In this document: positions 1,172 to 62,502 of the stretch, piece by piece | How the letters are laid out: the number at the start of each line of letters is the position of its first letter | How positions within the stretch are numbered: position 1 is the first letter of the stretch | NCBI GenBank assembly: GCA_009380045.1 | Contig: WHSN01000003.1 | Coordinates: 4,299 to 68,298 of the forward strand | DNA from: Luteitalea sp. | Lineage (GTDB): Bacteria > Acidobacteriota > Vicinamibacteria > Vicinamibacterales > CAVVIG01 | Length of the DNA: 64,000 nt | Direction: 5' to 3' | Notes under the pieces: model-generated | Told to the model about the DNA's origin: nothing | The model's input: the letters and a program-made list of their open reading frames with translations, nothing else | Database searches by the model: none | Program-made: the position numbers and the translations under genes

Positions 1172-1213
1172 GGTTCCCCGTGGCCCATCATCGCAAGGGC
1201 CTCCGCCAGCAGG

Positions 1214-1300: not shown

Positions 1301-1306
1301 AGCGCC

Positions 1307-3021: not shown

Positions 3022-3051
3022 GCATCCCCGCTTGCGGCATCCCCGCTTGCG
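3022..3051. repeat. perfect 15-bp tandem duplication (gcatccccgcttgcg x2)
   Basis: Read directly: 3022-3036 is identical to 3037-3051. It lies in the 547-bp divergent intergenic region between the HupE-like and DUF5916-like genes. Confidence 0.95.
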
Positions 3052-3230
3052 TCCTGCGGTGTGAGAGTTGAGCACCCGCGGCACCCTACAATGTGAGAGG
3101 TCGAGCATCCTGCCGCAGCTGCAGAGAGCGCCTTGGGGCGCGAGAGCCGAGGCCACCCTGCGCGTCAGAATCACAAATTCCAAGCTCATGCCGCGATGAA
3201 CCCAGCGCCCCCAGAAAGATATCGGTACGC

Positions 3231-5423
3231 GTGACCAACCGCCCTCTCCTCATCATCATTTTCCTGCTCGTCCTTCTCGACGCCACGGCGCGGGCGCAGC
3301 AAACCGCCGGCAGCGGATCCTCGGCCGCGGCGACCAAGCGTGCCAGTGCGTTGCGCACCACCGCGCCGCCGGTCATCGACGGTGTCATCGACGATCGGGC
3401 GTGGGAAGACGCCAAGCCGATTGGCACCTTCGTGCAGACCGAGCCAAGCGAGGGTCAGCCGGCCAGCGAATTGACCGACGTGCGGGTGTTGTACGACGAC
3501 ACCGCGATCTACGTCGGCGTGGTCTGTTTCGACACCGAGCCGTCGAGGATCGTCACCACCGACTCGCGGCGCGACGCGGCGCTCGCCGGCCAGGACTCGT
3601 TCCAGATCATCTTCGACACCTATCACGATCGCCAGAACGGCTTCATCTTCGGGACCAATGCCGCCGGCATCCAGTACGACGCGCAGGTTCGAAGCGAAGG
3701 CGAGACGCAGTCGGGCGGCGCGCCGACGCTCGGCCGCACCGACGGCGGATCGGGCGGCGGGCTGAACGTGAACTGGGATGGCAGCTGGGAGGTGAGGACC
3801 CGGATGACCGAGACCGGGTGGACGGCGGAGTTCAGGATTCCCCTGCGCACGCTGAGATACGGGCCGCCGCCGCAGCTCTGGGGCGTGAATTTCTCGCGCG
3901 CGATCGAGCGGAAGCGCGAGCAGGTCTACTGGTCCCCGGTCGCACGGGTCTACAACATCACGCGGCTGTCGTCGGCCGGCGAGCTCGGCGATCTGAACGT
4001 CACGCCGCCACGCAATCTCAAGCTGATGCCCTACGCGAGCAGCTCGACGAACCGGAACTTCACTCCCGGCTCCGAGAACCATCACGACGGCGACTGGGGG
4101 ATTGACGCCAAGATCGGCGTCACCTCCAGCATGAACCTCGACCTGACCTACAACACCGACTTCGCGCAGGTGGAAGTGGATGAGCAGCAGATCAACCTGA
4201 CGCGCTTCAACCTGCTGTTCCCGGAGAAGCGTCCGTTCTTCCTCGAGAACCGCGGGCTGTTCGCGGTCGGCAAGCCAGGGGAGGTCGACCTGTTCTTCAG
4301 CCGCCGCATCGGCATCGCCGACAACGGCAGCGGGGAGCTGACGCCAATCAGAGGCGGCGCCCGTCTGAGCGGCAAGGTCCAGGGCGTGAACGTGGGCCTG
4401 TTGAACATGCAGGCCGGCGAGGTGGGCACCACTCCGGGCAACAACTTCACCGCTGCGCGCGTCAACAAAGACCTGAGGAACCGGTCGAGCGTCGGGGCGA
4501 TCTTCGTGAACCGGACCGGGACCGGCAGCCTCGCGGGTTCGGACGACTGGAACCGCGCGTGGGGCGCCGACGGCAAGCTCGGCATCGGCGAGACTTTCAC
4601 TCTCACCGGGTTTGCCGCGCAGACTGCCACGCCGGGCGTTCGCGGCGGCGAGCATGCGTTCAGCTCCCGCGGTCAGTATCAGACGCGCGCTCGCCGAACA
4701 TATCTCGATTACACCGAAGTCGGCGAGGGATTCAACCCCGAGGTCGGCTTTCTCGAGCGCACCGGCGGATACCGGCAAATCGGAAGTGGATGGTTCGAGA
4801 ACGTTCGAAGCGCGAGGCTACAGCGGTGGGGGCTGCGCGAATGGCGGCCGCACTACAGCTATGAGAGCTTCTGGGGCTTCGACGGCTTTCAGGAAAGCGC
4901 CACGCTCCATACGGACAACGCCTGGGACTTCGAGAGCGGTTACACGATCAGCCCGGCGTTCAACGTCCAGTGGGAAGGGCTGCGCGTGCCGTTCGAGGTG
5001 TACCCCGGCGTGGTGGTGCCGGCCGGCAACTACCGCAGTCCCCTCGCCGCCGGGATGGGGAACACGGATCGCCGCAAGTGGATCTCCTTCTCGGGGGCCT
5101 ACAATATCGGCGGCTTCCTATCGGGCCACCAGCAGAGTTACGCCCCGCAGTTGAACCTCCGCAAGGGCGGCACGTTCACTTCGTCACTGCGGTGGACGCG
5201 GAACGACATCGATCTTCCACAAGGCAGCTTCGTCACCAACCTCGGCTCGCTGAGGATGACGTACAACTTCACCACTCTCGTCAACACTCAGGCGCTCGTT
5301 CAGTACAACGACACACGCGCCGGTGGTCGACGAACGTGCGGTTCACTTGGCAGCGCTCCGCCGCGACCGGCCTGTACATCGTCTACAACGACACCGAAGC
5401 CTTCGATGGTCTCGGCCCGGTGA
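3231..5423 (+). CDS. DUF5916/CBM9-like secreted protein; its 3' end is frameshifted, and the true C-terminus continues in another frame to 5473
   Basis: In-frame GTG at 3231 gives the signal peptide TNRPLLIIIFLLVLLDATARAQQ. PPVIDGVIDDRAWEDA..YVGVVCFD..FQIIFDTYHDRQNGFIFGTNAAGIQYD is typical of this family. The last ~35 codons of this frame are low-complexity, whereas the overlapping frame gives RWSTNVRFTWQRSAATGLYIVYNDTE..IIKYSHLFDILE. Confidence 0.8.
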   Translation: MTNRPLLIIIFLLVLLDATARAQQTAGSGSSAAATKRASALRTTAPPVIDGVIDDRAWEDAKPIGTFVQTEPSEGQPASELTDVRVLYDDTAIYVGVVCFDTEPSRIVTTDSRRDAALAGQDSFQIIFDTYHDRQNGFIFGTNAAGIQYDAQVRSEGETQSGGAPTLGRTDGGSGGGLNVNWDGSWEVRTRMTETGWTAEFRIPLRTLRYGPPPQLWGVNFSRAIERKREQVYWSPVARVYNITRLSSAGELGDLNVTPPRNLKLMPYASSSTNRNFTPGSENHHDGDWGIDAKIGVTSSMNLDLTYNTDFAQVEVDEQQINLTRFNLLFPEKRPFFLENRGLFAVGKPGEVDLFFSRRIGIADNGSGELTPIRGGARLSGKVQGVNVGLLNMQAGEVGTTPGNNFTAARVNKDLRNRSSVGAIFVNRTGTGSLAGSDDWNRAWGADGKLGIGETFTLTGFAAQTATPGVRGGEHAFSSRGQYQTRARRTYLDYTEVGEGFNPEVGFLERTGGYRQIGSGWFENVRSARLQRWGLREWRPHYSYESFWGFDGFQESATLHTDNAWDFESGYTISPAFNVQWEGLRVPFEVYPGVVVPAGNYRSPLAAGMGNTDRRKWISFSGAYNIGGFLSGHQQSYAPQLNLRKGGTFTSSLRWTRNDIDLPQGSFVTNLGSLRMTYNFTTLVNTQALVQYNDTRAGGRRTCGSLGSAPPRPACTSSTTTPKPSMVSAR

Positions 5424-5520
5424 ACCGCGCGCTGATTATCAAGTACTCGCATCTGTTCGACATTTTGGAGTAGCCAGAGCCGCGACATTTCGCGCCTTAC
5501 GAAGCCGCGCAGGGCCACGA

Positions 5521-5558
5521 GGATCACGAAGCTTTTTGGGAAAAGAACTTCGTGTTCC
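5521..5558. terminator. long imperfect hairpin between convergent genes (candidate bidirectional terminator)
   Basis: ggatcacgaag (5521-5531) pairs with cttcgtgttcc (5548-5558) at 10/11 positions, and the inner tttt/aaaa pairing extends the stem. There is no clean U-tract. Confidence 0.25.
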
Positions 5559-5640
5559 ATCGTGATGAACAACTGCTCGGTGAACCGAAAACGCTATAGC
5601 ACTTGCAGAGTGGCAGATGCGGCGGATGGCAGAGTGCGGC

Positions 5641-6096
5641 TCAGCGTAGAAGAGGACGGCCGTTGGCCAGCCCTGGCCACGGGATGGCCGCCAGCATCAG
5701 CACGGTGGCAAGCGCGAAGCAGGTCAGCCGGCGTCGCCGCGCGCTCACCGCGGAGGTCGCGTTCATCGCCAGCACGCGTCCGGTTCTCACCAGCACGACG
5801 GCCGCGAACATCGCCAGGGCGTGCTCAATCGCCCAGAAACGCATCGCCGGGTCTCGCACCGCCGCGCCGAAATCTTCCATCGCGATCTGCGTGAACGGGC
5901 TCAGCCCGAAATAGAGCACGAGGCCGAACAGCACCTGAAGGTCCACCGCGAGCATCAGACACGTGTCCCACCAGCGGCCCGGCAGGGGAGACGCCGGGCC
6001 GTCGTGCTGACGAAACGCGTTCGCGGTGGCCGTCAGCGCCAGGATCAACGTGACCCACCGCAGCCAGGAATGGATCGTTAGAACGGTCGCGTACAC
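5641..6096 (-). CDS. small integral membrane protein, function unknown
   Basis: The C-terminal ~150 codons of the 275-codon ORF form 4 hydrophobic helices (TIHSWLRWVTLILALTA.., LMLAVDLQVLFGLVLYF.., AMFAAVVLV.., FALATVLMLAAIPW). An in-frame GTG is at 6096. The upstream part overlaps the next gene and is Arg/Ser-rich. Confidence 0.55.
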   Translation of the reverse strand: MYATVLTIHSWLRWVTLILALTATANAFRQHDGPASPLPGRWWDTCLMLAVDLQVLFGLVLYFGLSPFTQIAMEDFGAAVRDPAMRFWAIEHALAMFAAVVLVRTGRVLAMNATSAVSARRRRLTCFALATVLMLAAIPWPGLANGRPLLR

Positions 6097-6289
6097 GCGG
6101 GTGTGCCGGGGCCAGGAGACGACCGCAGACGCCGATCGATGCGTCGGCGACCGACGGAGAGATTCGCAATCACCGAATACTGTTATACACGTCCCACGGC
6201 TGAATCGAGAAACGGGCGCCAGGAGGCGGATGAGAAATCCCCGCGTGGACGCGGCCGAAGGCGTCGGTAGGAACGCCCGGGGGAAAAAC

Positions 6290-6511
6290 TCAGATCTGAG
6301 GGCTTGGTTCCCTGTCGTTCCGGACGAACCGGCCGTCGGTGGCGCGCCTGAGGAACCGGGCATCCTGGAGGGTTTCGAGCACGATTTGGCACGAAGCCGG
6401 GTCCAAGCCCGTGAGACGCTCGGCCTCGGCGAGCGACAACTCGCGTTCCGGCTCCTGCATGAAGACACCTGTCAATTGCTGCACCGCATCAGCGATTCGG
6501 GATGTCGTCAT
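6290..6511 (-). CDS. small winged-helix/HTH-like DNA-binding protein (putative)
   Basis: The internal ATG at 6511 gives MTTSRIADAVQQLTGVFMQEPERELSLAEAERLTGLDPASCQIVLETLQDARFLRR.., an HTH-like pattern of ~73 aa. Confidence 0.5.
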   Translation of the reverse strand: MTTSRIADAVQQLTGVFMQEPERELSLAEAERLTGLDPASCQIVLETLQDARFLRRATDGRFVRNDREPSPQI

Positions 6512-6887
6512 AAATAAATGGGGCTGCCTTGCAGATGCCTGCGCAAACACCATACCGAAAACGGCATTCCACAAAATGCGCCCGTTTCGGCCTGCCCCAC
6601 CTCGCAGCCGCAGCAATCGAAGACGCTCCTCGTCAGTTAAGTGCCAGACGCGCTCAGCTCGATCGGCTCAGCAGTAAGTTGGAATCGGTATCCCCCCGGA
6701 AGTCGCCCTTCCATGAACTTTCCGTGGCACCCGTTGGATAACGTGTATACTCAAGCTTCGCTCCAGACGTAAGCCAGCCAGCGTGTAACCTACGCCGACC
6801 GGCCTCCGGGCAGGCGTCAGGTTCTTGTTTTCGTTCCGGCCCTGCCACGGCGTCTCTCGACAGCTACATCATCTTGAGGAGACTTCG

Positions 6888-7094
6888 ATGGCACCAATGA
6901 ACGGCACGATCAAGCGGCTCGTCAGCGACAAAGGATTTGGATTTATCCTGGCCAGCGACGGCAACGAGTATTTTTTCCACAGCTCGGCCTGCAGCCAAAT
7001 CTCTTTCGACGAACTGCGCGAAGGCCAGGCGGTGACTTTCGATCGCGGACAAGGCCCGAAGGGTCCCAGAGGCGAGAACGTCCGGGTCGCGTAA
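6888..7094 (+). CDS. cold-shock protein (CspA family, CSD)
   Basis: MAPMNGTIKRLVSDKGFGFILASDGNEYFFH.. carries the RNP1-like KGFGFI and RNP2-like FFH motifs. GAGGAG lies upstream of the ATG. Confidence 0.9.
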   Translation: MAPMNGTIKRLVSDKGFGFILASDGNEYFFHSSACSQISFDELREGQAVTFDRGQGPKGPRGENVRVA

Positions 7095-7304
7095 GTGAAC
7101 ACCACCGAAGTCGAGACGATGGTGCGCAGCGTCATCGTCCACCTCGGTCTGCCATTCTCGGTGCTCTCTGTCGTCGGCTCGCCCGCGGGATGGAACATCC
7201 GCGTGCGGGCATCCACCGGCGGCACCGTCGCATTTACCGTCGTCGGCGGCAGACCCTTGTCGATGCGCACGGCGATTCAGGAAAAGCTCGAAGACGCGTT
7301 CTGA
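7095..7304 (+). CDS. hypothetical small protein, translationally coupled to the csp gene
   Basis: The GTG at 7095 directly abuts the csp TAA stop (an alternative ATG is at 7119). 69 codons with G/C-rich third positions. Confidence 0.4.
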   Translation: MNTTEVETMVRSVIVHLGLPFSVLSVVGSPAGWNIRVRASTGGTVAFTVVGGRPLSMRTAIQEKLEDAF

Positions 7305-7355
7305 CCTCCCCCTTCGCCGACGTTTCCGACCCGTTGCGCCAATAGTGAGGATGTG

Positions 7356-7580
7356 ATGAAGCCCATGGTTCTGGCCGGGATCGTTCTCGCCGTTCTGGGT
7401 GTGGCGGCGCTCGCGTATCAAGGGTTCAGCTATACCAGCCGCGACACGGTCCTCGAGGTCGGCGACTTGAAGGTCGACACCGAGCGCGAGCGGTCAGTGG
7501 CGCTTCCTCCCATGGTCGGCATCGCCAGCATCGTCGCGGGCGTCGTGCTGATCGCGGTCGGGTCGCGGAAAGGCCGCTGA
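7356..7580 (+). CDS. small two-TM membrane protein
   Basis: MKPMVLAGIVLAVLGVAALAY...VGIASIVAGVVLIAVGSRKGR, two hydrophobic helices. tgagga lies upstream of the ATG. Confidence 0.6.
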   Translation: MKPMVLAGIVLAVLGVAALAYQGFSYTSRDTVLEVGDLKVDTERERSVALPPMVGIASIVAGVVLIAVGSRKGR

Positions 7581-7589
7581 TTCGTCCGG

Positions 7590-7838
7590 TCAGCCGGCCG
7601 CGCGCCTGTCGCGAATGAAGTCCCGTCCTCGACCCGCCTCTACCAGGTTCTTGGCCCCTCCGACGAACGGCACGAAGTCGAGCGCGGTATCAACGGTTCC
7701 GCCCACGACCCCTTTCCGCCGGATGGCGCTGCCAATGGTCGCCAGCGCGACGAGTCCGCCTATCCAGGGAACCGATCGATAGAGCCGCCGCGCCAGCCTG
7801 TGGCCGGCGTACTGTGTGAGCTGTCGGGTCAAGGCCAT
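7590..7838 (-). CDS. hypothetical small protein with one hydrophobic segment
   Basis: 82-codon ORF with G/C-rich third positions. No family recognised. Confidence 0.45.
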   Translation of the reverse strand: MALTRQLTQYAGHRLARRLYRSVPWIGGLVALATIGSAIRRKGVVGGTVDTALDFVPFVGGAKNLVEAGRGRDFIRDRRAAG

Positions 7839-7925
7839 GCCGTCGAGCGAGCAAGGGCCGTGCCCGGGCGGTTCCCCGGCTCGCCTTCGAAGGACGATCT
7901 GGCGGCGGCGGACCCGCCCCGGGAC

Positions 7926-10219
<2,294 letters not shown>

Positions 10220-51376: not shown

Positions 51377-51703
51377 TTATGTGCCGGGCGCTCGGTACCG
51401 GACTTGCTCGGCCTTGCGCAAGGCCTGCATCGCCTCGTCGACGGTCAGGAGGACTGTCGTTTCGAACGAGCTGAGCGCACCGCCGCCACTAATCGCCAGC
51501 GCAACCGCGGCCATGGAGACGTTGTCGGGGGCTTCCCATAGGTTGTAGCCGTCGTGTGTGCCGAAGGCGTACCAAAACCCGTGGAGCTTCCCACCGACCG
51601 ACTCGATGTACGACTGAGCGGCTTTTCGGCGGTCTTCTGGGTTGCCGATCAGCCTGGCCCAAGTCTCGGGTGTGTAGCTGAACCTCGATAGATAGAGTGG
51701 CAT
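51377..51703 (-). CDS. GYD-domain protein
   Basis: MPLYLSRFSYTPETWARLIGNPEDRRKAAQSYIESVGGKLHGFWYAFGTHDGYNLWEAPD. GGGAGGA lies upstream of the ATG at 51703. Confidence 0.8.
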   Translation of the reverse strand: MPLYLSRFSYTPETWARLIGNPEDRRKAAQSYIESVGGKLHGFWYAFGTHDGYNLWEAPDNVSMAAVALAISGGGALSSFETTVLLTVDEAMQALRKAEQVRYRAPGT

Positions 51704-51965
51704 CGTTCCTCCCTCTCGTTCGCCCATCTGCGTGAGTCGCCGTCAGGCGTGAGCATGACCCTATCACGCGGCGGGCTTTGGACACGACACTCGGCTGTCT
51801 CACTGGACGTGCCTGAGTGCGGTGCGCCAGATACGTTCTTTACCTTAGGGCGCATCGACCTGCTTCTGCGTAGGCGAGGGTCCATATGCGCGGGAGCTGG
51901 CAGCAATGGACGGTAGCGGTCGTGCGCGGCGCGTGCTAGCATCGGCCGCACTCGACGCTGATGCT

Positions 51966-51993
51966 CAACGATGCCATGCCAACGATGCCATGA
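51966..51993. repeat. 14-bp tandem duplication (caacgatgccatg[c/a] x2)
   Basis: Read directly, 13/14 identical. It lies ~40 bp upstream of the start of the second GYD gene. Confidence 0.9.
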
Positions 51994-52031
51994 AGGCAAC
52001 CCGAGCGCTGGCACATTCACGGGAGGACGAC

Positions 52032-52352
52032 GTGCCGAAGTTTCTCGTCAAGGCGTCATACACCGCAGACGGAGCGCGCGGGCTACTCAAAGAGGGAGGC
52101 ACCGGCAGGAGGGACTCCGTCCGAAAGCTCGTCGAGGGTCTGGGGGGCAAGGTCGAAGCGTTCTACTATGCCTTTGGCGATGATGACGTGTATGTCATCA
52201 CTGAGCTTCCCAGTACGGCGGCTGGTCTGGCGCTCACGCTCGCCGTCAACGCGTCCGGCGCGGCCCGGCTGACGACGGTGCCGCTGATCTCCGCCGAAGA
52301 GATTGATGTCGCCACGAAGACAGCCGTGAACTACCGGGCGCCAGGAGCGTAA
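52032..52352 (+). CDS. GYD-domain protein (paralog, divergently oriented)
   Basis: The GTG at 52032 follows GGGAGGA. VPKFLVKASYTADGARGLLKEGGTGRRDSVRKLVEGLGGKVEAFYYAFGDDDVYVITELP. Confidence 0.8.
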   Translation: MPKFLVKASYTADGARGLLKEGGTGRRDSVRKLVEGLGGKVEAFYYAFGDDDVYVITELPSTAAGLALTLAVNASGAARLTTVPLISAEEIDVATKTAVNYRAPGA

Positions 52353-52576
52353 CCGATCGGTCGGTCGGCTTCGGACCTTCGGGCACGCCGCGTGATCAGT
52401 GGACGTGCTCCCGGTTTCGTCGGTTGCATCGAGGATCCTTGCACGATTTCGATGCCACAAGGCGAACCCCGTCCATCGGCAGAACGACGCTGCTGGCTGC
52501 CCGTGTTGCGAGGCGGTGGCCGCGCCAGGATCAAGTTGTGAGGCGGTGTCACCTGAGCGTAGCGGCCTCTCGTCCA

Positions 52577-53110
52577 ATGGCCAAAGATTCACCGCGCTCC
52601 TCCAACGCGGCTTCGGCGCATCCTGCCGGCAAGTCGCGAGCAGTACAACAGCTCCTGTCGATTCTCGACCAGGCGTACGATCGACGGTCGTGGCACGGAA
52701 CCAACCTGCGTGGATCGATTCGCGGCGTTTCAGCACAGCAGGCAGGTTGGCGGCCTGGACCCGGTCGCCACAATATCTGGGAACTGGTCGTGCACGCAGC
52801 ATATTGGAAGTACGCCGTATGGCGACGCGTGACCCGTCAGCGCCGTGGCTCGTTCCCACTCAAAGGCTCAAACTGGTTCCGGCGACCGCAACAGGCAACT
52901 GACCACGAGTGGCGCTCGGATATCGCGCTGCTGGACCGGATGCACCGGTCGCTGCGCGAAGCTGTCGAGCATCTGCCGGCGCGCGATTTGTTGCAAGTTC
53001 CGAAGGGCAGCACAATCAGCAATGCCTTCATCCTGTCCGGCGTGGCAGCGCACGACCTGTATCATGCCGGTCAAATTCAGCTGCTGAAGAGGCTGTCAGC
53101 GGGCGAATGA
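52577..53110 (+). CDS. DinB-family protein
   Basis: SWHGTNLRGSI..IWELVVHAAYWKYAV..AAHDLYHAGQIQLLKRL carries the DinB His triad pattern. Confidence 0.7.
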   Translation: MAKDSPRSSNAASAHPAGKSRAVQQLLSILDQAYDRRSWHGTNLRGSIRGVSAQQAGWRPGPGRHNIWELVVHAAYWKYAVWRRVTRQRRGSFPLKGSNWFRRPQQATDHEWRSDIALLDRMHRSLREAVEHLPARDLLQVPKGSTISNAFILSGVAAHDLYHAGQIQLLKRLSAGE

Positions 53111-53715
53111 GCACGATTCCCCTGTCCACCCGCTACGCCTTCATTGCCGCTGCCGTCCTCTGTACCCTTGCGCCGCGCGGCGCAGCGTTTGCGGAAGAGT
53201 GGCTGATCGATACCGAGCGATCCACGATCACGGTGCGTGTCTTCAAGTCCGGTCCAGTCTCGCCTGCCGGAGGGGACTATGTCATTCAGGTGCCTTTGAT
53301 GGACGGCTCCTTCGACCCGTCGGTTCCTCACATGCAGCTCGCGATCGACGCTCGCCGCATGCGTGTGCTCGAGGGCGCCCTTTCAGCCAAAGAGCGCCAG
53401 GAGGTGCAGGCTCTGATGCTCGGAGCGGACGTCCTCGACGTGGACCGATTCCCGTGGATCAGTTTCCACTCAGTCGAGATCCAACGGCTCGACGGCGCTG
53501 AGTGGCTTGTGCAGGGCGAGCTCGGGATGCACGGCCATGTCCGCGCGACTCCGGTGAGCGTCACTCCAGGGCACAACCGGTACAAGGGTTCTACGACGAT
53601 TCGACAGAGCGAGTACGGTATCGCCCCTCTCACCCTTGCGGGGGGCACGGTCGGGGTGAAGGACGAGATCACGATAGATTTCGACATCGTGATAGCCGAG
53701 GGCCGGTCGCCGTAG
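53107..53715 (+). CDS. YceI-like domain secreted protein
   Basis: ATGA overlap with the DinB stop. Signal peptide. WLIDTERSTITVRVFKSG..DRFPWISFHS..GELGMHGHV..IDFDIV resembles the YceI fold. Confidence 0.65.
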   Translation: MSTIPLSTRYAFIAAAVLCTLAPRGAAFAEEWLIDTERSTITVRVFKSGPVSPAGGDYVIQVPLMDGSFDPSVPHMQLAIDARRMRVLEGALSAKERQEVQALMLGADVLDVDRFPWISFHSVEIQRLDGAEWLVQGELGMHGHVRATPVSVTPGHNRYKGSTTIRQSEYGIAPLTLAGGTVGVKDEITIDFDIVIAEGRSP

Positions 53716-53875
53716 TCAAGAGCAACTGTCACTCAAATCATCGGCGTCGTGACCGGGACGGTTCGGCGTCCGGCATCGGCTCCGATAGGCCGAGTGAGCG
53801 TCGCGGTCCCGAGGGCATCGCAAGAAGAAAAGCTCGCTCTCAGGTGCATGACCCCGAGAGGCGCCCGGCGCCACG

Positions 53876-55744
53876 TCAAGGTCCGCCCGTGCCGGGCAGC
53901 GACATCACCGGCGCATATACACCAAGGCGCTCGCGCGTCCACCATACTCCTTCAGCGCGCCGCTCGGCAGGGTCTGCGAACTTGTACCGATACAGCACGC
54001 TGCGGACATAGCGCGGCGGGCGGCCGTGAAACGGATCGCGCTCGATGAGGCGCAGCACGTCCGGGGATCCCTGCAGCAGCCGTGCGCAGAAGTTCTGGAA
54101 CCAGGTCTCCTCACCATAGCGGTCGAGCGCCGCGAACCACATCTGCCAGTCGAGCCGCGGTTGGTGAGGCGCGACCCACGCCGGCGGTCGGGTCAGATCG
54201 CCCGGCTTGTACCGGAACTCATAGGGCCGCCAGACTTCTCCATCCATCGACCCTTCGACGATGATCTCCGGGCGGACTGTCGTCATCACGGCGAAGAGAC
54301 CGTAGCTGTTCACGCTGCGGAGCGGCGCAATCGCCCTGGCCACCGGCAACACCAGCCGCCGCCCTGGCAGTGACAGGCCGAGGCTGCGCGACAACATCAG
54401 CGCCGACACCGGCACCGTGACCACCGCGACGGCGATCACGACGAACCGGCATCCCCGCGACACATACGCGGGCGACAGGTTGACCGGCGATCGTCGTGCC
54501 AGCACGGCATCGTCCAGTAGAAACACACACAAAGCGGCGGACAGCAGGTTGAAGAACGCATAGTTTCCGGTGAGCGCGATCGCCACTTGCAAACCAACGA
54601 GAAGGACGAAGGCGAGCGTTCGCAGCCGGCGCGGGCCGAGCATCAGCCACGGGGCACAGAGCTCGATCGCAAGAACAACCGCGGTCGAGCTGTGCTGGAA
54701 CCACGGCGGCATCCAGTGTGCGTGCCACGCGACCAGGGTCGGCAACGGCTGCGTCTCGTAGTGGACGCTCAGGGCGGTGAAGCTGCGCCACGTGGGATCC
54801 CCGCTGGTGAGCTTTACGGCGCCCGATCCCACCATCAGACGGAACAGCAGCCACAGCATCAGCCACACGGCGAGGCGCGGCGGATCGGATGCAGTGCGCA
54901 CGCGATCGCGCAGGCCGGCCGGCGCGAGCAGGATCGAGAGAAAACCGGCTTCGAGCAGCAGCGAATCCCACTGGAACGCCAGAAACGGTCCGCCGATCAC
55001 CGAGAGCGCCAGGTAATCAGCCCAGAGCGCCACGAGGATGGCGACCGGTCCGATGCCGGCGACGAGCAATGATGCGAGCACCACGCCGCCGACGCACAGG
55101 CAATGCAGCCACACGTCGCCGACACCGGCCGGCAGGATGCCGTTCGATCCGGCGAGCCCGACGATTTGCGTGGCGAGAGACCCGAACGCCGCCAGGTACG
55201 TGACGCCCAGCAGGCGAAAGAACCACCAGCGCGCGAGCGCGTAGGTGGAGGGTTCCGAAACGCGTCCCCACAGCAGGATCGTGACCCGCGCGGCGGCATC
55301 GCGGTGGTCGGCAATCAGGCGGTATGCCCGCTCGGTGATGGCGCGTACGCCCGGCGCCCGTTCGTAGAGCCGCAGTGGCCAGCGAGCTCCCACCGCTGCG
55401 AGCAGTCGAAAGACAGCCTCGGCGGCCTCGAAAACACGACCGTCCGCCTCGACCAACTGGACGGCGCTCGCGCTTCGCTCTCGCGGGACGTCGGGAAAAC
55501 GCTCGGCGACGGCGGAGCTCTGAAACGGCTGATACTCGACTGCGTTCCCGGTGCGATGGCGCCATTTCGCTACCCAGAAACGGCAGAATCCGCACTCGCC
55601 GTCGAAGATGAGTACCGGATGGCCAGGCGGTGACGCGACGCGTCGTTCGCGCACAGGAGTGTTGTAGCCGAGAAACGCGTCACCGGCAATGAAGGCGTCG
55701 CTGAAGGTCGCCACAGAGTGGATCCCTGGGCTCTTCGCACTCAC
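53876..55744 (-). CDS. fusion of a DCC-type thiol-disulfide oxidoreductase (DUF393) with a lipase-maturation-factor (LMF) family membrane domain
   Basis: The N-terminal VLIFDGECGFCRFWV (DCC motif) is followed by ~10 TM helices and the C-terminal WFQNFCARLL..DPF..PPRYVRSVLYRYKF typical of LMF proteins. Confidence 0.75.
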   Translation of the reverse strand: MSAKSPGIHSVATFSDAFIAGDAFLGYNTPVRERRVASPPGHPVLIFDGECGFCRFWVAKWRHRTGNAVEYQPFQSSAVAERFPDVPRERSASAVQLVEADGRVFEAAEAVFRLLAAVGARWPLRLYERAPGVRAITERAYRLIADHRDAAARVTILLWGRVSEPSTYALARWWFFRLLGVTYLAAFGSLATQIVGLAGSNGILPAGVGDVWLHCLCVGGVVLASLLVAGIGPVAILVALWADYLALSVIGGPFLAFQWDSLLLEAGFLSILLAPAGLRDRVRTASDPPRLAVWLMLWLLFRLMVGSGAVKLTSGDPTWRSFTALSVHYETQPLPTLVAWHAHWMPPWFQHSSTAVVLAIELCAPWLMLGPRRLRTLAFVLLVGLQVAIALTGNYAFFNLLSAALCVFLLDDAVLARRSPVNLSPAYVSRGCRFVVIAVAVVTVPVSALMLSRSLGLSLPGRRLVLPVARAIAPLRSVNSYGLFAVMTTVRPEIIVEGSMDGEVWRPYEFRYKPGDLTRPPAWVAPHQPRLDWQMWFAALDRYGEETWFQNFCARLLQGSPDVLRLIERDPFHGRPPRYVRSVLYRYKFADPAERRAEGVWWTRERLGVYAPVMSLPGTGGP

Positions 55745-55880
55745 GGCGGTGCTGGGGTGGATCCAGAATCCGTGAGTGCGCTTCGCCGAACATGCCAGCG
55801 CGCCCGATCACGATAAGCGGGGGTTTCGACCAGACCTCGACGCACATTGCGACACGAGGCGGTCCGTTACGGCCCGGACA

Positions 55881-56300
55881 CTACGAAGGGCGTCGGGCTC
55901 TTGCCGCGGTTCGAACCACGCGCCAGTAGAGCAGGGCATTGATGGCCATGGCGAGCCCACCCAGCCAGATCTGGCGAGGCCGCGTCAGGTATGCCGGATA
56001 GAGTAAAGGCAGCACGTAGTGCTCAACGAAGTCTCCTTGATACGGCGAGGATCCGCCTCGCTCACGAAGATAGTTTTCAAGCGGTGTCAGCGGGCAGGCC
56101 CAACCTGCGAGTTCAATGATCACGCCCCAGATCGCGGCGGGGACGTGGATCCAGGCGAGCCGTCGCCACCGCACCACCAGCAGGCCGCCGAGCACCACGA
56201 ACGCGACGAACGCGGCGTGCACGGCGACGACGATGTCGGCTGCGGCGCGAAACAGTGTCGGGTGATCGAGTGTGGGGAACGTGAGTGGGGGGAATGTCAT
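55881..56300 (-). CDS. DUF2784-like membrane protein
   Basis: VVAVHAAFVAFVVLGGLLV..WIHVPAAIWGVIIELAGWACPLTPLENYLR. Family name from memory. Confidence 0.6.
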   Translation of the reverse strand: MTFPPLTFPTLDHPTLFRAAADIVVAVHAAFVAFVVLGGLLVVRWRRLAWIHVPAAIWGVIIELAGWACPLTPLENYLRERGGSSPYQGDFVEHYVLPLLYPAYLTRPRQIWLGGLAMAINALLYWRVVRTAARARRPS

Positions 56301-56520
56301 GACAGAATTCGGCCCGATCCCGGTGCAAGTGCAGAGGCGTCGAGCGTAGCTCGGACGGACGTGCCAACCAACCTCGGATCAGAGTATCAATAGGCCGGAA
56401 TGGGGCGTTCCCGGATGAAGGGGCGCGCTCGATCGACGCTCCAGGCCGGGGCGGATGAATCACGGAGGCGAACCGACCGATCAGGTCACCGATTGAGGGT
56501 CCAGCACATTGGGAGGGGTT

Positions 56521-58548
56521 ATGATCTGCTCCACCTGCCGCGGGTCTGGCATGCTGCCGTTGACGGACTCTCCGGTCGTGTCATGCGGCGAACGATGAGT
56601 AGACTGATCAGCTTCCGGCTGCCGTGTGTCGCGTGTCACGGCACCGGGTATGCGCCCGATCCGCCGCGAACACCGCCACCGAACACCGATCACGACAGCA
56701 GGTCGGTCGAGTCGGACGCCAAGCCCGTCCCCCAGTTCGCCGGATTGCCGCCCGGCGCCCCCATGTCCGATGAGGCACTGTTCCGGAAAGCAATCGATTT
56801 GATCGCGGAGGCCAGCCGCAGCGGTGAAATCAGCGAGCAACAGGCTGCGGCAAATCTGCGCGCCCTCGAGCGGCTGAAGGACGCCGCGACCCAGGCGGTG
56901 TCGAGCGCCGCTGACGCCGACGCGCAAGCCTCCCGCTCGCACGATGTGATCTCGGACCAGAAATCTCTGTTCGTCCGATCGGACCGCGAGCCGGGCGGTC
57001 GAGCGCACAGAATTCCCGACCGTGCAGAATCTCTCCTGCCGCTGCTCACGCCGCTGAAAAGCTTCCTGGTGGACGAAACGAACAGGGTTCGTCAGGGCAG
57101 GGCCGAGAAGGAGCGGGGCCTGGCGTTGCTTCTCGAGCTGGCGCGCGCGCAGAAGGCACTCAGTGAGGCGGCAGACAACGGGCAGGTCCGGAGAATCGAG
57201 CACTTCCAGCTGCGCTCGCTGGCCTGGTCGATCCGGAAATTCGCCCTTCGCCGGCACTTGATGGTGGCGCAGCCGTTCTGGGGCGCGTCTTCTGTCGAGC
57301 CCGACGCGACGTGCGTGTTCTTTGCCGGTGGCGACGCCGTGCGCGGGGACATGGTCCGCTATTGCGAGAAGAGAGGCCTCACCCTCAAGCATGCGCCGGA
57401 GGGGGGTGCGAGCGGTCACCTGCGCTGGGATCTCATCCGCGAGTCGGTCGCAGGCGTGTTCGATCTGACTGTGTCGTCCCAGCGCACACGCGCTTCCGTG
57501 TGTCATGCGCTTGGCATCAGTCTGGCGCTCGGACGCTATCCACTGATCCTCGCGAAAGCCGGGGCATCGCTGCCCTTCGACATCGACGTCGAGGCCGAGT
57601 ACCTGACGCCCGCGCAAGCAAGCTCCGGGATCGTCGCCAAGCGGCTGGATGAGGCGCTCTTCCGTCTGCATCCGACCGGCGGAGAAAGCTCTCTCGCCGC
57701 TACGGGCCGTCAAGTGCCGGGAACGCCCCATTCCTCAGATGACGTGGAGCTGCAGCAGCAGCTCGAACATCGGCTCTCCGGCTCAGGGCACGCCGCGCCG
57801 CGAGTACTGCTGCACCCCGTCTGGCCGGCGTCGTATCCCGATGTGAAGTGCCCGACGGCCTTTCACCTCATGCCGTTCGGAAAGAAATGGTCCGGACCCG
57901 TACGCGACAAAGTCCGTCGAGCCATCGAGCACGGCGGCCTCGAGTACCGCCGCGGGGACCAGACCAAGGGCGTGTACGTGATCCGCGCGATCTGGGACGA
58001 AATATGTCGCGCCTCGATGGTGATCGCGGATCTGACCGGCCTGAACGAGAACGTCTGCCTGGAGCTCGGCATGGCCCAGGCGATAGGCCGGCCGGCGCTG
58101 TTGATGACGCAGGACGACATCGGCAGATCCCGCTTTCCTGAAATCGCCAAGCTCCGGTTGAGCAGCGGACGGCGTGGTCGAGAAGCTCGACGAGCGCCAC
58201 ATCAACGTCGGTCCCCACATCTCGCAGTTCGGCTGGCAGTTCGAGAAGCAGTTCTACACCCAGGACGGCGGCGTCACGATGGTGACCGAATGGGTCGGGC
58301 TGGTGGGAGGTCTCGAACAGAGTGTCGTCCTTCCCAGCCTGAGCTGGATTGTCGGCGTGCGGACTCGGGATGGCGCCGAATTCGGAATGGGGCCGAACAT
58401 TACGCCAGCAGGAGCCGCACTGGTCCTGGCGACCGGCATGACGTTTCGGGCAGGCGCGCTGAACATTCCGGTGAATGTCGCCGTGGTTCCCTCGAAGGTC
58501 GGAACGCGCGTGAGCGTGCTGTCCGGGTTCAGCCTGCGGCACCCGTGA
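56521..58548 (+). pseudogene. uncharacterised three-module gene (DnaJ-type zinc finger, two tandem Rossmann-like deoxyribosyltransferase/TIR-like units, beta-rich tail) interrupted by two frame changes
   Basis: GGGAGGGG-N5-ATG at 56521 opens MICSTCRGSG.. and stops at 56598. The second CxxCxGxG (CVACHGTG, 56625-56648) and >500 further codons are in another frame. After FPEIAKLR (~58158) the sense reading continues in a third frame (VVEKLDERHINV..., stop at 58548). See the finding for the internal repeat alignment. Confidence 0.5.
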
Positions 58549-58580
58549 GAAACGGCCGCGACAATTTGGGCCGCGCGATA

Positions 58581-58955
58581 TCAGCGTTCCTGGATCAACT
58601 CGCCACAGGTGATGCGATGTCCGTCCGGTGTTCGAAGACCAAATTCCCGAAGTCCCCAGGGCTTGTCCGAAGGTTCGGATGTCACCAGGGCTCCTCGCGC
58701 GGCCAATTCTCGATAGAGCTGATCCACGCCGTCGACATTCCAGTACACGAAGTACGAATGGTCTCCCAGCGCGCTTGCCGGTTTCGCGTCCGGGCACTCG
58801 CCCAGCATCACCCTGAAACTGTCACGCGTCAGAAAGCTCCATCCCTCGGCATCGATCGGATCCCGGCTGAAGCCAAGGACGTCGGTGTAGTACCGCGTTG
58901 AGGCCTTCAGGTCGTGCACCGCCAGGACACATCGGGAATTGACAATGCGAGCCAC
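58581..58955 (-). CDS. VOC-family (glyoxalase/bleomycin-resistance fold) protein
   Basis: The GTG at 58955 follows GGAGGG. VLAVHDLKASTRYYTDVLGF..FVYWNVDGVDQLYRELAARGA..KPWGLREFGLRTPDGHRI. Confidence 0.8.
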   Translation of the reverse strand: MARIVNSRCVLAVHDLKASTRYYTDVLGFSRDPIDAEGWSFLTRDSFRVMLGECPDAKPASALGDHSYFVYWNVDGVDQLYRELAARGALVTSEPSDKPWGLREFGLRTPDGHRITCGELIQER

Positions 58956-59087
58956 GTCGTGACCCTCCGTTTGATCAATGGCCGAATGATGCCACCGCAG
59001 GCCGTCGCCGACAAGCGGGCGCGTCGGGGAGAGATGCCGCGGAAGGCAGGCCGCCAACCGCGGCCCGTGTTCGACGGCAGCGCGACT

Positions 59088-59552
59088 TCACCGTGCGATC
59101 GAATAGTTGTGCGACACGATCATTGCGTAGCCGGAATTCAGCGCCACCATCGTCACGATCGCCGCGATGCGATTGTTTTTCCTCAGCTTTTCGGTCAGAA
59201 CGATGATGCCTGCCGTCGCGCCGACCTTCAGCGCGCCCATCGCCAGCGGCGACTGCAGGGCGCTGACGACCGGGTTCCCCTCGCTGCCGCCCGCCGTGAG
59301 GGCACGGTGGGTGGAGTGCATGTCCAGCGCCTGCAGGACCCCGAACGAAACGTAGAGCGGCACGAGACCCGAGGGCCGTGCCGCCGGCGAGGGTCGCAGT
59401 GGCGCGGTGCCGACAACCGCGTTCGGGGAGGCGACGGCCAGTAGCGACGGAGAGTCGTCGCGTTCCTGGGCAGCGACCGGATTGACGCTCGAGACCAGCA
59501 TTCCCAACGTCAGGCACACCACTGTGCACACGGAGCCTTCGACCTTCGACAT
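59088..59552 (-). CDS. DUF5658-like membrane protein
   Basis: Signal/TM N-terminus, then LQALDMHSTHRALTAGGSEGNPV and two C-terminal TM helices. Family name from memory. Confidence 0.55.
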   Translation of the reverse strand: MSKVEGSVCTVVCLTLGMLVSSVNPVAAQERDDSPSLLAVASPNAVVGTAPLRPSPAARPSGLVPLYVSFGVLQALDMHSTHRALTAGGSEGNPVVSALQSPLAMGALKVGATAGIIVLTEKLRKNNRIAAIVTMVALNSGYAMIVSHNYSIAR

Positions 59553-60240
59553 GGCACTTTCCTGCAGGCGCCGCTCGAGGAGACCACCCGGACGTCACGC
59601 GGGCATCGAGGAGCCTCGTATCGCCGACGCAGAACAGCGGCCCTGAATGGACAGCTTTGAAGCGGTAGTCCAACAGGAATGCCAGACAGGCTGAGCTTGA
59701 AATGTTCGTGTTTAGGGCAGTTTTTATAGGACACGAAGATAATCCAAATGCAAAAGACATCATCTAGACGACTTTAGTCACCACCTGACGGGTTGGAGCG
59801 ACAGATCGTGCCGACCTGGCCGGACCCCAACGAGTCCGGCCGAACCGCGCCGGCGACGATCGGCGTGACGAGGCGCGCGCGGGCACTCCCTTTCGCCCGC
59901 CAGCGCCAGGCCCGGTCCAGTCTGGTCACCGGCGGGCAGCACACGCGATCTCCACCGCGCCGCCTGCGAGAGGGGCCATGAGGGCCGGCGCCTCAGCCGC
60001 TTCTGTCGCCTGTGCCCCTGCCTTCGGCGACAGCGGGCCCTCGACCCGCCAGCGGCCGGAGCTCTCCACGGCCACCCCTGGTGAAGGCGCGCACAGGTCC
60101 GGGTGATTGAGCTGCCACATCGCCAGGTGGAAGAAGGGCAGGTGGTGAGAAGGAAGGTTTTCTCAGAGCTCGAGATGTTCACCGGGGAGTGCCGGACGTC
60201 GGGATGCCGCGTTCACCGCGACGTCAGTTACAATCCAGCA

Positions 60241-60256
60241 ACTCTAAAACTCTAAA
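60241..60256. repeat. 8-bp tandem duplication (actctaaa x2) abutting a ribosome-binding site
   Basis: Read directly. It is followed by GGAGGG and the ATG at 60266. Confidence 0.85.
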
Positions 60257-60265
60257 GGAGGGCCA

Positions 60266-61216
60266 ATGCGGAAGAGCGCCATTCTGCTCGTCGCCGGTGC
60301 GCTGATGATTCCAGCGGTGCCGTCAACCACGTTCGCGCAACTGTCGCCGTCCGCCGACTGGGCGACTCACGCGCAGAACGGCTACCAGGTGATCGCGAAC
60401 GTCACCTACATGACGGCCACCGGCTACGATTCGAAGCTCGACGTTTACAAGCGCCGCGACACCACCGCCGCGCAGCCCACGCTCGTCTTCTACCACGGCG
60501 GCGGATGGGTGGGCGGCAGCAAGGAGGCGTCGTTCATGTCCATTCTCCCGTGGCTCGAGATGGGCTGGAATGTCGTGAACGTGGAATACCGGATGGCCCG
60601 GGTCGCGCCGGCGCCCGCCGCGGTGGAGGACGCCACCTGCGCGCTCCGGTTCGCCGTCGAGAAAGCCAAGGAGTACGGCATCGACCCCAACCGGATTGTG
60701 GTCAGCGGCGAATCGTCAGGGGGACATCTCGCCCTCGCCGTCGGCATGATTCCGGAGAGCGCCGGGTTCACCCGCGCCTGCGCCGGCGGAGGATTCAGGG
60801 GGATTGAAACCGCGGTACCCAAGGTGGCGGCGATCATCAACTGGTACGGCATCACCGACGTGACGGAGATGCTCGGCGGCGCCAACGCGCGATCGTACGC
60901 GGCCCAATGGCTGGGCGCCTCCTCCGATCGTGACGCCGTGGCCAAGAGCGTGTCCCCTCTCACTTACGTCCGAAGCGATCTTCCGCCCATTTTGAGCATA
61001 CAAGGCGATGCAGATCCGATCGTGCCCTACTCGCAGAACGTTCGCCTCAGCGATGCGCTCACCAAGGCCGGTGCGAAGACCGAGCTGATGACGATTGCGG
61101 GCGGCGGCCACGGCAATTTCAAGCCTGAAGAACGGACCGCGATCTTCCTCAAGATCCGCGACTTCCTGGCCAAGAACGGCCTGCCGGCGTCGAGTGGAGG
61201 CCAGGGGAGCCGATAA
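60266..61216 (+). CDS. alpha/beta hydrolase (esterase/lipase, Abhydrolase_3-like), secreted
   Basis: Signal peptide. Oxyanion HGGGW, nucleophile elbow GESSGGH, and a D..H pattern near the C-terminus (GDADPIV, GGGHG). Confidence 0.85.
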   Translation: MRKSAILLVAGALMIPAVPSTTFAQLSPSADWATHAQNGYQVIANVTYMTATGYDSKLDVYKRRDTTAAQPTLVFYHGGGWVGGSKEASFMSILPWLEMGWNVVNVEYRMARVAPAPAAVEDATCALRFAVEKAKEYGIDPNRIVVSGESSGGHLALAVGMIPESAGFTRACAGGGFRGIETAVPKVAAIINWYGITDVTEMLGGANARSYAAQWLGASSDRDAVAKSVSPLTYVRSDLPPILSIQGDADPIVPYSQNVRLSDALTKAGAKTELMTIAGGGHGNFKPEERTAIFLKIRDFLAKNGLPASSGGQGSR

Positions 61217-61369
61217 CCGTCCGGATGCGGCAGGAACATCGCCCGCAACGCGGTGCCTCGATCGGTCGCTCGCTCGAGAAACGATCGGGAACACCGTACC
61301 GGGAACGCCCGTGCGTGCTCGGCGGTCTCCCGCCTCCGCCCGCCATTTTCCCACGCACTTCTTCCGAAC

Positions 61370-61396
61370 GCGCTTCGGCGAGGCTCGCCGAAGCGC
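61370..61396. terminator. perfect 12-bp-stem hairpin between convergent genes (candidate bidirectional terminator)
   Basis: gcgcttcggcga-ggc-tcgccgaagcgc, read directly. There is no U-tract on either side. Confidence 0.3.
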
Positions 61397-61542
61397 CTAC
61401 CCCGCGAAGGCGGCTGCGGTAAACCTCACGCCCGGCATCGCCGATTCATCGCGACGCCCACTCGTGTTCGAGAAAGCGCGACTTCACGTCGCTTGCCGGT
61501 TTCTCCTTCGGTTCGCGCGGCCGGCGTCTCGTGCGCGGCACG

Positions 61543-62502
61543 TCACTTGCGGTACCAGTCGTAGAGCTTGTCCTGTGGCGGGATCTTCCTGGTGATGTCG
61601 ACGATCATGGTTTCGCCCTCCCACCGCTTCACCAACGGCTCTTTGCGAAGACCTCCATACAGGAACTCCTCGGCAAACTCGACGCAGCGATACTCGATGA
61701 GCTGCGCGTTCGGCTCGACACGGCGGTAGATCGGCATCGAGATGCGCCATGGCTGCGTGAAGACATTCGGATCTTCGATCGTCACCTCGTAGTTGATGAT
61801 GTCCGGCGTTTTCAACGTGTAGCGTTCCACGAGATGGAGCGCGTCGCTGTGGAAATTGCCCGCTCTGTCGAACCAGTTCTTGCCGTTGAAATTCGTCACG
61901 TCGACGACCAGCGTGTCGCCCTCCCAGCGGCCCACCGAATGCCCCATGTAGGTGTCATCCGGCGGCCCCTCGACCTGACCGAAGTGGATGGCACGAGCGG
62001 CGTTCGTAAACGTATAGGCCATCTGGATCTGGTTCGTTCCCTGCACGATCTGGAACGGATAGGGCATATACATCGCGCGGGGGATCCCGGGGAGGTAGCA
62101 CTTGAGCTCGGGGTCGCGGTCGATCCAGTTCTCACCGTTCTCCTGTTTGACCGGCGCGGTTTCCGGCTTGTAGGGAATCTGACCGTCCCCGTCGACAACG
62201 CCGAGCGATCCCGGCACGCCGGCCGCGGCGCCGAGTGCAATCACCGGCGCTGCCGGGACGCGAGCGTACTCATATGGATAGACGCCCGGCTGCGTCACCA
62301 TCCCCGGACGCGCCTCGTGGGCCTGCAGGTCCCAGTGGGCCTCGTTGTTCGCCTGCCAAATGCCGCTGAAGTCGGGCTTGCCGTCAGCGGTGCGGGCCGG
62401 CGACGGGGTCTGCGCAGACGTGCCGGTTCCCAGCCTCCAGCCGAGGGCGCCGGCTGCAACGACCGCCACAACTGCTCCTGCCAACATCCAGGCGCGGTGC
62501 AT
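61543..62502 (-). CDS. secreted protein of unknown function, paralog family member 2 (P2, divergent)
   Basis: N-terminal anchor/signal. GKPDFSGIW, GHSVGRWEGDTLVVDVTNF, LHLVERYT..INYEVTIEDPNVFTQPW and EYRCVE align to P1/P3 motifs. Confidence 0.8.
   Translation of the reverse strand: MHRAWMLAGAVVAVVAAGALGWRLGTGTSAQTPSPARTADGKPDFSGIWQANNEAHWDLQAHEARPGMVTQPGVYPYEYARVPAAPVIALGAAAGVPGSLGVVDGDGQIPYKPETAPVKQENGENWIDRDPELKCYLPGIPRAMYMPYPFQIVQGTNQIQMAYTFTNAARAIHFGQVEGPPDDTYMGHSVGRWEGDTLVVDVTNFNGKNWFDRAGNFHSDALHLVERYTLKTPDIINYEVTIEDPNVFTQPWRISMPIYRRVEPNAQLIEYRCVEFAEEFLYGGLRKEPLVKRWEGETMIVDITRKIPPQDKLYDWYRK

Follow-up and report, generated by a model that had tools for sequence, protein, structure and literature searches.

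The stretch of DNA analysed here (the window) comprises 64,000 nucleotides of contig WHSN01000003.1 from Luteitalea sp., and two damaged genes meet on its plus strand between positions 56521 and 58548. The first of them, gene A, would encode a zinc-finger protein with two domains related to the nucleoside 2-deoxyribosyltransferases (NDT) and to DNPH1, while the second, gene B, belongs to a large family of secreted proteins. Probably, gene A was inactivated recently, being broken by a deletion in codon 19 and by an out-of-frame fusion to a remnant of gene B, and its intact protein would be a pseudo-dimeric nucleotide N-glycosidase. The features of the locus, together with the evidence on which each of them was placed, are as follows.

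56511 to 56518, plus strand: Shine-Dalgarno-like GGGAGGGG, read from the sequence; the starts of the orthologues align with the ATG at 56521.
56521 to 56574, plus strand: gene A codons 1-18, including the first CxxCxGxG motif (CSTCRGSG, 56527-56550), in frame pos%3==1 (position modulo 3); tblastn of residues 1-18 of orthologue P0003 and codon alignment with loci L001, L008 and L009.
56575 to 56576, plus strand: lesion 1, the GT left of codon 19 (Ser; AGC in orthologues); tblastn and codon alignment, identical in the independent assembly L002.
56577 to 57245, plus strand: gene A codons 20 to about 242, with the second CxxCxGxG motif (CVACHGTG, 56625-56648), a Pro-rich linker and the helical region, in frame pos%3==0; tblastn, family alignment and AlphaFold2 (AF2) helices H84-244.
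57246 to 57719, plus strand: NDT/DNPH1-like domain 1, degenerate (VCHALG instead of the Glu motif; LPFDID loop kept); hhalign and alignment.
57801 to 58163, plus strand: NDT/DNPH1-like domain 2, catalytic-type (AFHLMPF, YRRGD, ADLTGLNENVCLELG; Glu codon 58062-58064); PF05014, PDB profile alignment to Rcl/DNPH1, Foldseek and conservation.
58158 to 58167, plus strand: lesion 2, the out-of-frame fusion breakpoint; tblastn, blastn of four gene B loci and phase of third-position GC.
58165 to 58548, plus strand: gene B remnant, 5'-truncated, consisting of the last 127 codons and the stop; protein and DNA homology, dN/dS.
58164 to 58901, plus strand: read-through of the gene A frame, a non-coding Arg-rich open reading frame (ORF) out of frame with gene B; translation and phase of third-position GC.

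Three reading-frame segments follow one another over the region. A short ORF of 25 codons, reading MICSTCRGSGMLPLTDSPVVSCGER, runs from the ATG at 56521 to a stop at 56596-56598; a long ORF, in the frame of 56400, is open through 58901; and the first frame (pos%3==1) is reopened at about 58162 and continues to 58548. The strong Shine-Dalgarno sequence that an earlier note on this DNA had placed 5 nt before the first ATG is present, with a spacing of 2 nt rather than 5, as measured from the end of its G-run. Between about 56610 and 58110, the GC content at third codon positions (GC3) of the long frame is 0.75-0.90; at about 58160 its phase switches abruptly from pos%3==2 to pos%3==0, the next two steps of the scan giving 0.97 and 0.85. 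Because of this pattern, the frame changes are real features of the coding signal, including the switch near 58160 that the earlier note had pointed out.

The conceptually repaired window protein was used as the query of a homologue search, which returned 22 homologues. The closest intact orthologues are P0002 (572 aa, 73% identical) and P0003 (570 aa, 67%), together with P0004, P0005, P0007 and P0008. Intact orthologues measure about 570 aa. Two CxxCxGxG motifs form their N-terminal zinc finger, which is followed by a helical region and by two homologous NDT/DNPH1-like domains. The orthologues start with M-x-C-x-x-C-x-G-S-G-x-M-P-L-T-x-S-P-S-R-V/T-...-L-P-C-x-A-C-x-G-[TS]-G, so that both motifs fall in one ORF. 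The second motif is kept in all seven closest orthologues and six show both as annotated; P0006, annotated from an internal Met, shows the second only. Among the six that are annotated from a common start, none has lost any of the four Cys or the Gly residues. The intact product of gene A is a cytoplasmic protein of about 570 aa with a single four-cysteine zinc finger.

Mapping of these proteins onto the window locates the first lesion to the base. In tblastn, residues 1-18 of P0003 fall on 56521-56574 and residues 20-549 on 56577-58163. At the codon level, the orthologues read TCT CCG AGC AGA/CGC GTC/ACC where the window reads TCT CCG GT CGT GTC; codon 19 is therefore short of one base at 56575-56576, a site that is not a homopolymer. 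The deletion of this single nucleotide shifts the rest of gene A to another frame, the original one stopping at 56596-56598, and separates the zinc finger's first half from what follows it. The proposal that one indel had split a DnaJ-type pair of CxxCxGxG motifs is thus borne out, as is the assignment of 56521-56598 to the same gene as the long frame. Programmed frameshifting at 56575 was also considered and was rejected, as the orthologues read through this position with a normal Ser codon.

The second lesion is of a different nature. In all orthologues the motif FPEIAKL[RQ]V is followed by another 21-26 residues, which comprise an invariant Tyr (SRY) and a short helix; there the protein ends. 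The window reads AKLRLS and there homology to gene A stops, so that domain 2 is cut at this point; the invariant Tyr and the terminal helix are missing from every frame of the window. The downstream frame (AADGVVEKLDERHINVGPH...SLRHP) has more than 1899 protein matches, and the best 120 of them are 80-90% identical over 96-99% of the query, most being about 170-210 aa long. These gene B homologues begin with a signal peptide and continue with '...LSGPRFGLTLLADGVVKKLEERDIKVGPHISQFGWQFEKQFYT...'; the segment VVEKLDERH therefore belongs to gene B and does not supply the final helix of the second unit, which the earlier note had taken it to close. Residues 58-183 of gene B fall on 58165-58542 in tblastn, the blastn matches of four independent gene B loci (L003, L004, L055 and L056) each start exactly at 58165, and DNA homology to the gene A orthologue at L001 ends at 58156-58163. 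The breakpoint is therefore fixed to within a few bases, with its two halves out of frame. Among the best 150 of 362 family members, the match to the gene A profile runs to the C-terminus in nearly all. Position 58163/58165 is accordingly a fusion junction between a 3'-truncated gene A and a 5'-truncated gene B and not a frameshift: a deletion or rearrangement took the last 21 or so codons of gene A and joined the gene to the last 127 codons of gene B. Neither remnant is able to give a normal product.

Gene B represents a very large family of secreted proteins of about 184 aa, 80-90% identical to one another, for which no Pfam family match was found. The AF2 model of an intact homologue shows a signal-peptide helix and eight strands, at a low predicted local distance difference test score (pLDDT 61.5), and Foldseek relates it to the Ail, OmpX and NspA barrels (Ail E 2e-4, template modelling (TM) scores 0.47-0.61). 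The predicted signal peptide and eight strands resemble the pattern of these proteins, with no family link at the level of sequence. On the strength of the model, gene B probably encodes an OmpX/Ail-like eight-stranded outer-membrane barrel. In the window, the signal peptide and strand 1 are both missing; this copy therefore cannot form a barrel and is a dead remnant. Copies of gene B lie in the window (58165-58548), L003 (7001-7567), L004 (7001-7525) and L055 (6001-6558), and in three loci the same strand carries a Trans_reg_C and/or TPR gene upstream of it or close by.

The reality of both lesions also has to be weighed. A Logan assembly of run SRR10173838 (L002) matches window positions 51638-61923 (10.3 kb) with 2 mismatches and 0 gaps, and both mismatches (51919 and 52355) are distant from the lesions; a different assembler therefore reproduces both of them. 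It is quite unlikely that gene A and a separate gene B are both intact and that the missing base and the join were made in metagenome assembly. Such an origin would fit the fact that the window probably comes from a metagenome-assembled genome (MAG) and that gene B was not seen next to gene A in any other locus looked at, and it would equally leave the remnants undamaged outside the two lesions. It is opposed, however, by the independent assembly and by the position of the deleted base outside any homopolymer. Moreover, the homologies to A and B meet within about 10 nt, from which we infer that the source sequences have at most some 10 nt in common there and that a chimera of a k-mer graph would need more. 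The gene A copy keeps 60 of the 62 columns that are at least 90% conserved in the family (the exceptions are a C-to-A change in AFHLMPF and the lost Tyr) and has no internal stops over 530 codons. As for the gene B remnant, its dN/dS against intact genes is 0.07-0.11, compared with 0.12-0.17 for pairs of intact genes. Both remnants being otherwise undamaged, both events are therefore recent. Taken as a whole, the data support true decay and not assembler noise, as the earlier note had judged.

A locus that is still functional is very unlikely. In this case translation would restart at the in-frame ATG at 56583 or 56595, both of which overlap the end of the 25-codon leader ORF, and would give an enzyme without zinc finger and with an altered C-terminus. 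The catalytic motif and the conserved residues counted above are intact, and about 40% of the family representatives from the profile search described below have a length of about 400-520 aa and start just before or within the helical region, so that the N-terminal module is not universally required. Nevertheless, the product would be without the last strand, the helix and the Tyr that is invariant in 20 of 20 members, and it would carry a nonsense extension of about 245 Arg-rich residues, encoded antisense through another gene; in addition, the closest orthologues retain the CxxCxGxG motifs to the extent described above.

There is little chance that gene A is a piece of mobile DNA inserted into gene B, instead of one partner in a deletion joining neighbours. 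Its patchy occurrence, the IS110 elements that flank it in one locus and the different neighbours that it has in each genome would agree with an insertion. Against it, nothing upstream of gene A corresponds to the 5' part of gene B, and a search of the whole 64-kb window for that part gave nothing significant; gene A is itself truncated at the junction, and the site contains neither a transposase nor a repeat. Finally, a single protein of about 675 aa (zinc finger, two domains and beta tail) with two simple frameshifts is hardly conceivable. In its favour, the stretches upstream of 56575 and downstream of 58164 are read in one frame (pos%3==1), the GC3 of the frame-1 ORF after 58162 is coding-like, and VVEKLDERH has a superficial likeness to the amphipathic helix that closes the proteins of the family. 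Against it, the tail is found in 0 of 167 family members, nearly all of which end right after domain 2; including ADGVVEKLDERH, it shows 88-90% identity to residues 58-183 of secreted proteins from another family; and the invariant Tyr and terminal helix of gene A are in no frame.

It follows that the second switch, which had been read as an indel within one gene, is the breakpoint between gene A and gene B, and that the 120-aa beta tail does not belong to the protein, as homologues place 58162-58548 in an independent gene. The architecture of zinc finger, two domains and beta tail does not exist, its three-module look being an artefact of the gene-gene fusion breakpoint. Where the coding signal is good on either side of a frame switch, the switch can therefore mark the fusion of two truncated genes and not a frameshift. 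With gene A read as a recently inactivated gene, the consequence for the window copy itself, a dead gene, is limited to documenting recent gene loss.

From the family alignment (A1, 20 members) the two units were excised as A2 (domain 1) and A3 (domain 2), and hhalign matched them over 124 columns with 97.7% probability and an E-value of 2.4e-12. In the AF2 model of P0003 (mean pLDDT 80, above 90 across most of residues 170-570), the order of strands and helices of residues 250-382 recurs in 430-569; the section matching P0003 residues 169-244, within the helical region, is likewise conserved and confidently modelled. The two domains arose by internal duplication, in agreement with the homology between two units of about 120 aa that had been noticed from the sequence.

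The relationship of these domains to known enzymes emerges at the level of the family. Pfam PF05014 (Nuc_deoxyrib_tr) matches 13 of the 20 members at E<=0.1 (best E 4.7e-10), with 13.9 bits for P0003, and is precomputed for P0018 and P0019. The specific matches of low root-mean-square deviation (rmsd) retrieved by Foldseek with the P0003 model are the cyanobacterial NDT 8pqt (rmsd 2.4 Å) and about 15 DNPH1 structures (TM 0.67-0.75), at probability 1.0, and the plant RUN1 TIR domain scores below DNPH1 (TM 0.56). The model thus predicts a flavodoxin-like alpha/beta fold with NDT topology. Searches of PDB sequences returned only coiled-coil noise from the helical region for the full-length profile and nothing for domain 1 alone. 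In the PDB profile alignment of domain 2, '...VVVDLTGLNxNVCLELGLAQAxGRP...' aligns with '...VVVAEVTQPSLGVGYELGRAVALGKP...' of Rcl/DNPH1; the invariant Glu of the family therefore falls on the DNPH1 nucleophile, the GYELG Glu of Rcl. This residue is invariant in the alignment (CLELG) and present in 139 of 139 pattern-matched members. Domain 1 of the window clade reads VCHALG, with the Glu gone, and keeps an invariant PFDxD loop; in P0018, P0019 and P0021 domain 1 has AYELG or SYELG. The partners of a DNPH1-type triad, beta1 Tyr and general-acid Asp, were not recognised by profile alignment and reading by eye: in the family, Ser/Thr ('cRAs') stands at the position of the Asp ('QQAD'), and the beta1 motif CFHVMPF has His where NDT and DNPH1 have Tyr, a correspondence taken by eye from the alignment with no structural superposition. 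Invariant basic residues are R479, R498, R525 and K545 in P0003 numbering. The attribution of the hhhDLTG-N-NV-ELG-A-A-GRP motif to the NDT/DNPH1 superfamily, which is related to TIR, is therefore upheld by Pfam, Foldseek and profile evidence. An NCBIfam scan of the repaired protein gave no match; the family is uncharacterised, as had been stated, and neither Pfam nor NCBIfam has a model for it. It represents an unstudied variant, in architecture, of a known enzyme superfamily.

NDT enzymes and DNPH1 are obligate dimers whose active sites include residues of the partner subunit. In DNPH1, E104 is the covalent nucleophile that forms a glycosyl-enzyme intermediate, and the active site of the dimer has contacts from the opposing chain (PMC10603095). 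Similarly, the NDT-like effector of retron Ec86 has a catalytic Glu, E106, and requires dimerisation of its NDT-like domain (bioRxiv 10.1101/2023.08.16.553469). By analogy, domains 1 and 2 of the intact gene A protein would pair within the chain as a pseudo-dimer that has a single active site, a proposal made because the nucleophile is found only in the second copy and the invariant PFDxD loop in the first. Domain 2 would supply the Glu nucleophile for cleavage of the N-glycosidic bond of a nucleotide-type substrate, with domain 1 as a structural or substrate-binding partner. The active site might then cleave or transfer the base of a nucleotide bearing a phosphate, which is proposed because of the many invariant Arg/Lys residues. 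The variable N-terminal modules and the helical region may regulate or target the enzyme. The least certain step is a role as conflict or stress effector, put forward because the distribution of the family is patchy and horizontally spread. If this analogy is correct, the intact family would be a natural single-chain version of the NDT/DNPH1 obligate dimer, with one active and one degenerate half.

Comparison with known systems helps to define what is peculiar to gene A. DNPH1/Rcl and class I/II NDT (PF05014) have in common with it the fold, the hhhD/E-h-T...h-G-h-E-L-G-x-A-x-A-x-G-[KR]-P motif and the aligned nucleophile Glu, and their obligate dimers are analogous to its paired domains. Gene A differs from them in having two fused copies per chain, the first without Glu in the window clade, in about 250 extra N-terminal residues (zinc finger and helical domain), in Ser/Thr at the general-acid Asp and, apparently, in His at the beta1 Tyr position; the clade of the window also stays under the Pfam cut-off. 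The effectors of type II retrons (Ec86/Eco1) resemble it in their toxic NDT-like domain with a catalytic Glu, but their domain architecture is unlike that of gene A, which has no match to a PADLOC retron effector. Furthermore, no reverse transcriptase (RT) Pfam match is present among the neighbours of gene A in 8 annotated loci, no RT-like cluster recurs in 41, and no non-coding RNA gene lies beside it in the loci examined. Among TIR/TPR-S conflict proteins, the TIR/TPR-S/MAP3K_TRAF_bd protein WP_012489397 of plasmid pCC511_4, located beside SLATT and TIR genes, has an N-terminal domain related to domain 2 of gene A. Proteins of this kind combine one such domain with TPR-S repeats, whereas in gene A the domain is doubled in tandem and TPR-S is not detectable; nor does gene A have a Pfam match to TIR.

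As regards the zinc finger, the DnaJ cysteine-rich domain (PF00684) shares the CxxCxGxG motifs, four in DnaJ and two (one Zn site) in gene A, which has neither a J domain nor the DnaJ C-terminal domains. PF00684 scores on the family remain below threshold, at 12.2-14.8 bits versus a cut-off of 32.7 (E 0.012-0.23), and the AF2 model of the zinc-finger part is unconfident (pLDDT 43-56). N-terminal modules vary across the family: the CxxCxGxG pair is limited to the clade of the window, and zinc ribbons or helical repeats are found in others. A distant member, P0165 (939 aa), has three CxxCxGxG motifs in a C-terminal extension (residues 779-826); the same type of zinc finger has therefore been joined to the enzyme core more than once.

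The family is widespread and sporadic. A profile search of 1.84 billion cluster representatives retrieved 362 members at E<=1e-30, so that the family counts at least 362 clusters at 50% identity. With one genome per species (185,579 species), it was found in 43 loci from at least 8 phyla or classes, the hosts being Verrucomicrobiota, Acidobacteriota, Gemmatimonadota, Myxococcota, Planctomycetota, Desulfobacterales and Alpha-, Beta- and Gammaproteobacteria. Cultured strains among the hosts include Pyxidicoccus fallax DSM 14698 and Hyalangium versicolor. Among 2.9 million viral contigs there is one single-domain relative; the family is therefore not phage-borne. When the ORFs located up to 4 kb from gene A were clustered for 41 loci, no universal neighbour emerged, and the genes next to it differ in every genome. 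Partners are limited to clades (a 299-aa protein in 5 loci and a protein of about 200-330 aa in 4), and those submitted had no Pfam or PADLOC match. Gene A stands alone in L001, L008/L009 and L010, as well as in the window, where a divergent DUF2784 gene (55881-56300) lies on one side and the gene B remnant on the other. P0014 has a separate zinc-ribbon gene directly upstream, and P0013 is preceded by two small genes, the unit being bracketed by two IS110 transposase genes.

The single-domain relative encoded on Rhizobium plasmids, WP_012489397, is 33.6% identical to domain 2 over 118 aa of its N-terminal domain (E 6e-7). In addition, the PADLOC model PDLC00733 for TIR effectors aligns with the motif region over 45-55 of its 388 positions, at E-values from 6e-6 to 5e-4. 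The setting of this single-domain relative and the PADLOC match suggest, by analogy, a conflict-related role for the gene A family. If the true substrate were NAD+ (nicotinamide adenine dinucleotide) or a component of the nucleotide pool, the family would add a new architecture beside the retron, TIR and ATP nucleosidase N-glycosidase effectors. A more specific version, in which the intact family is an undescribed single-protein immune or abortive-infection effector, kept as an inactive pseudo-dimer until its N-terminus senses an invader and then cleaving NAD+, ATP or deoxynucleoside monophosphates, with the double inactivation seen here reflecting the fitness cost of a toxin, appears doubtful.

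Several observations weigh against the reading of the locus as a recently broken gene for a nucleotide N-glycosidase. The PF05014 score of the window protein, 16.3 bits, is under the gathering cut-off of 28.8, and given the Ser/Thr at the general-acid position the chemistry may differ from that of DNPH1. The PADLOC match is only partial, at 45 residues, no operon partner is conserved and the window is without defence-island context. On the side of gene B, the confidence of the structural model is low, and its absence beside gene A elsewhere means that a larger rearrangement could have occurred instead of a simple deletion. Moreover, the lesions are known from assemblies, and they may represent a minority allele in a population that also holds an intact copy. 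A scan of JGI metagenome contigs gave no close relative of the window protein.

Some of the loci collected in this analysis deserve a separate description. On the Rhizobium sophoriradicis plasmid pCC511_4 (L058, NZ_CP104156.1 15030-23437), a single NDT-like domain is fused to MAP3K_TRAF_bd/TPR-S, and the cluster includes a SLATT_3/SLATT_1 protein, two TIR-domain proteins, a QueC-like synthase, an HhH-GPD glycosylase and a carbohydrate kinase; it looks like a nucleotide-centred conflict island. The combination of TPR-S with Trypsin_2 is typical of conflict systems. A protein of this architecture is encoded at 4651-6249 of the P0002 contig (JGI 3300078620), 2.5 kb downstream of the gene A orthologue, with two metabolic genes between them, and its presence may be a coincidence. 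In a Verrucomicrobiae MAG (L005, contig_2605, 1056-8628), the gene A homologue has 946 aa and N-terminal zinc ribbons, two small genes (154 and 299 aa, without Pfam match) lie upstream, and two IS110-family transposase genes flank the unit in a composite-transposon-like manner. A homologue of the 299-aa region is present upstream of gene A in 5 loci and was found through a conserved antisense ORF that overlaps that gene.

Within the window, a scan of 56250-58700 for promoters and terminators gave nothing exceeding the shuffle expectation. The Arg-rich read-through of gene A runs antisense to the VOC gene at 58581-59057, which has a Glyoxalase Pfam match on the minus strand. A public gene call, P0001 (768 aa, Logan; 56595-58901, plus strand), is an artefactual read-through across the breakpoint and antisense through the VOC gene, and the protein made in this way by gene callers is now in a public collection. 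Lastly, an ORF of 416 aa lies antisense to gene A at 56481-57731 on the minus strand and is of the spurious type expected at such high GC.

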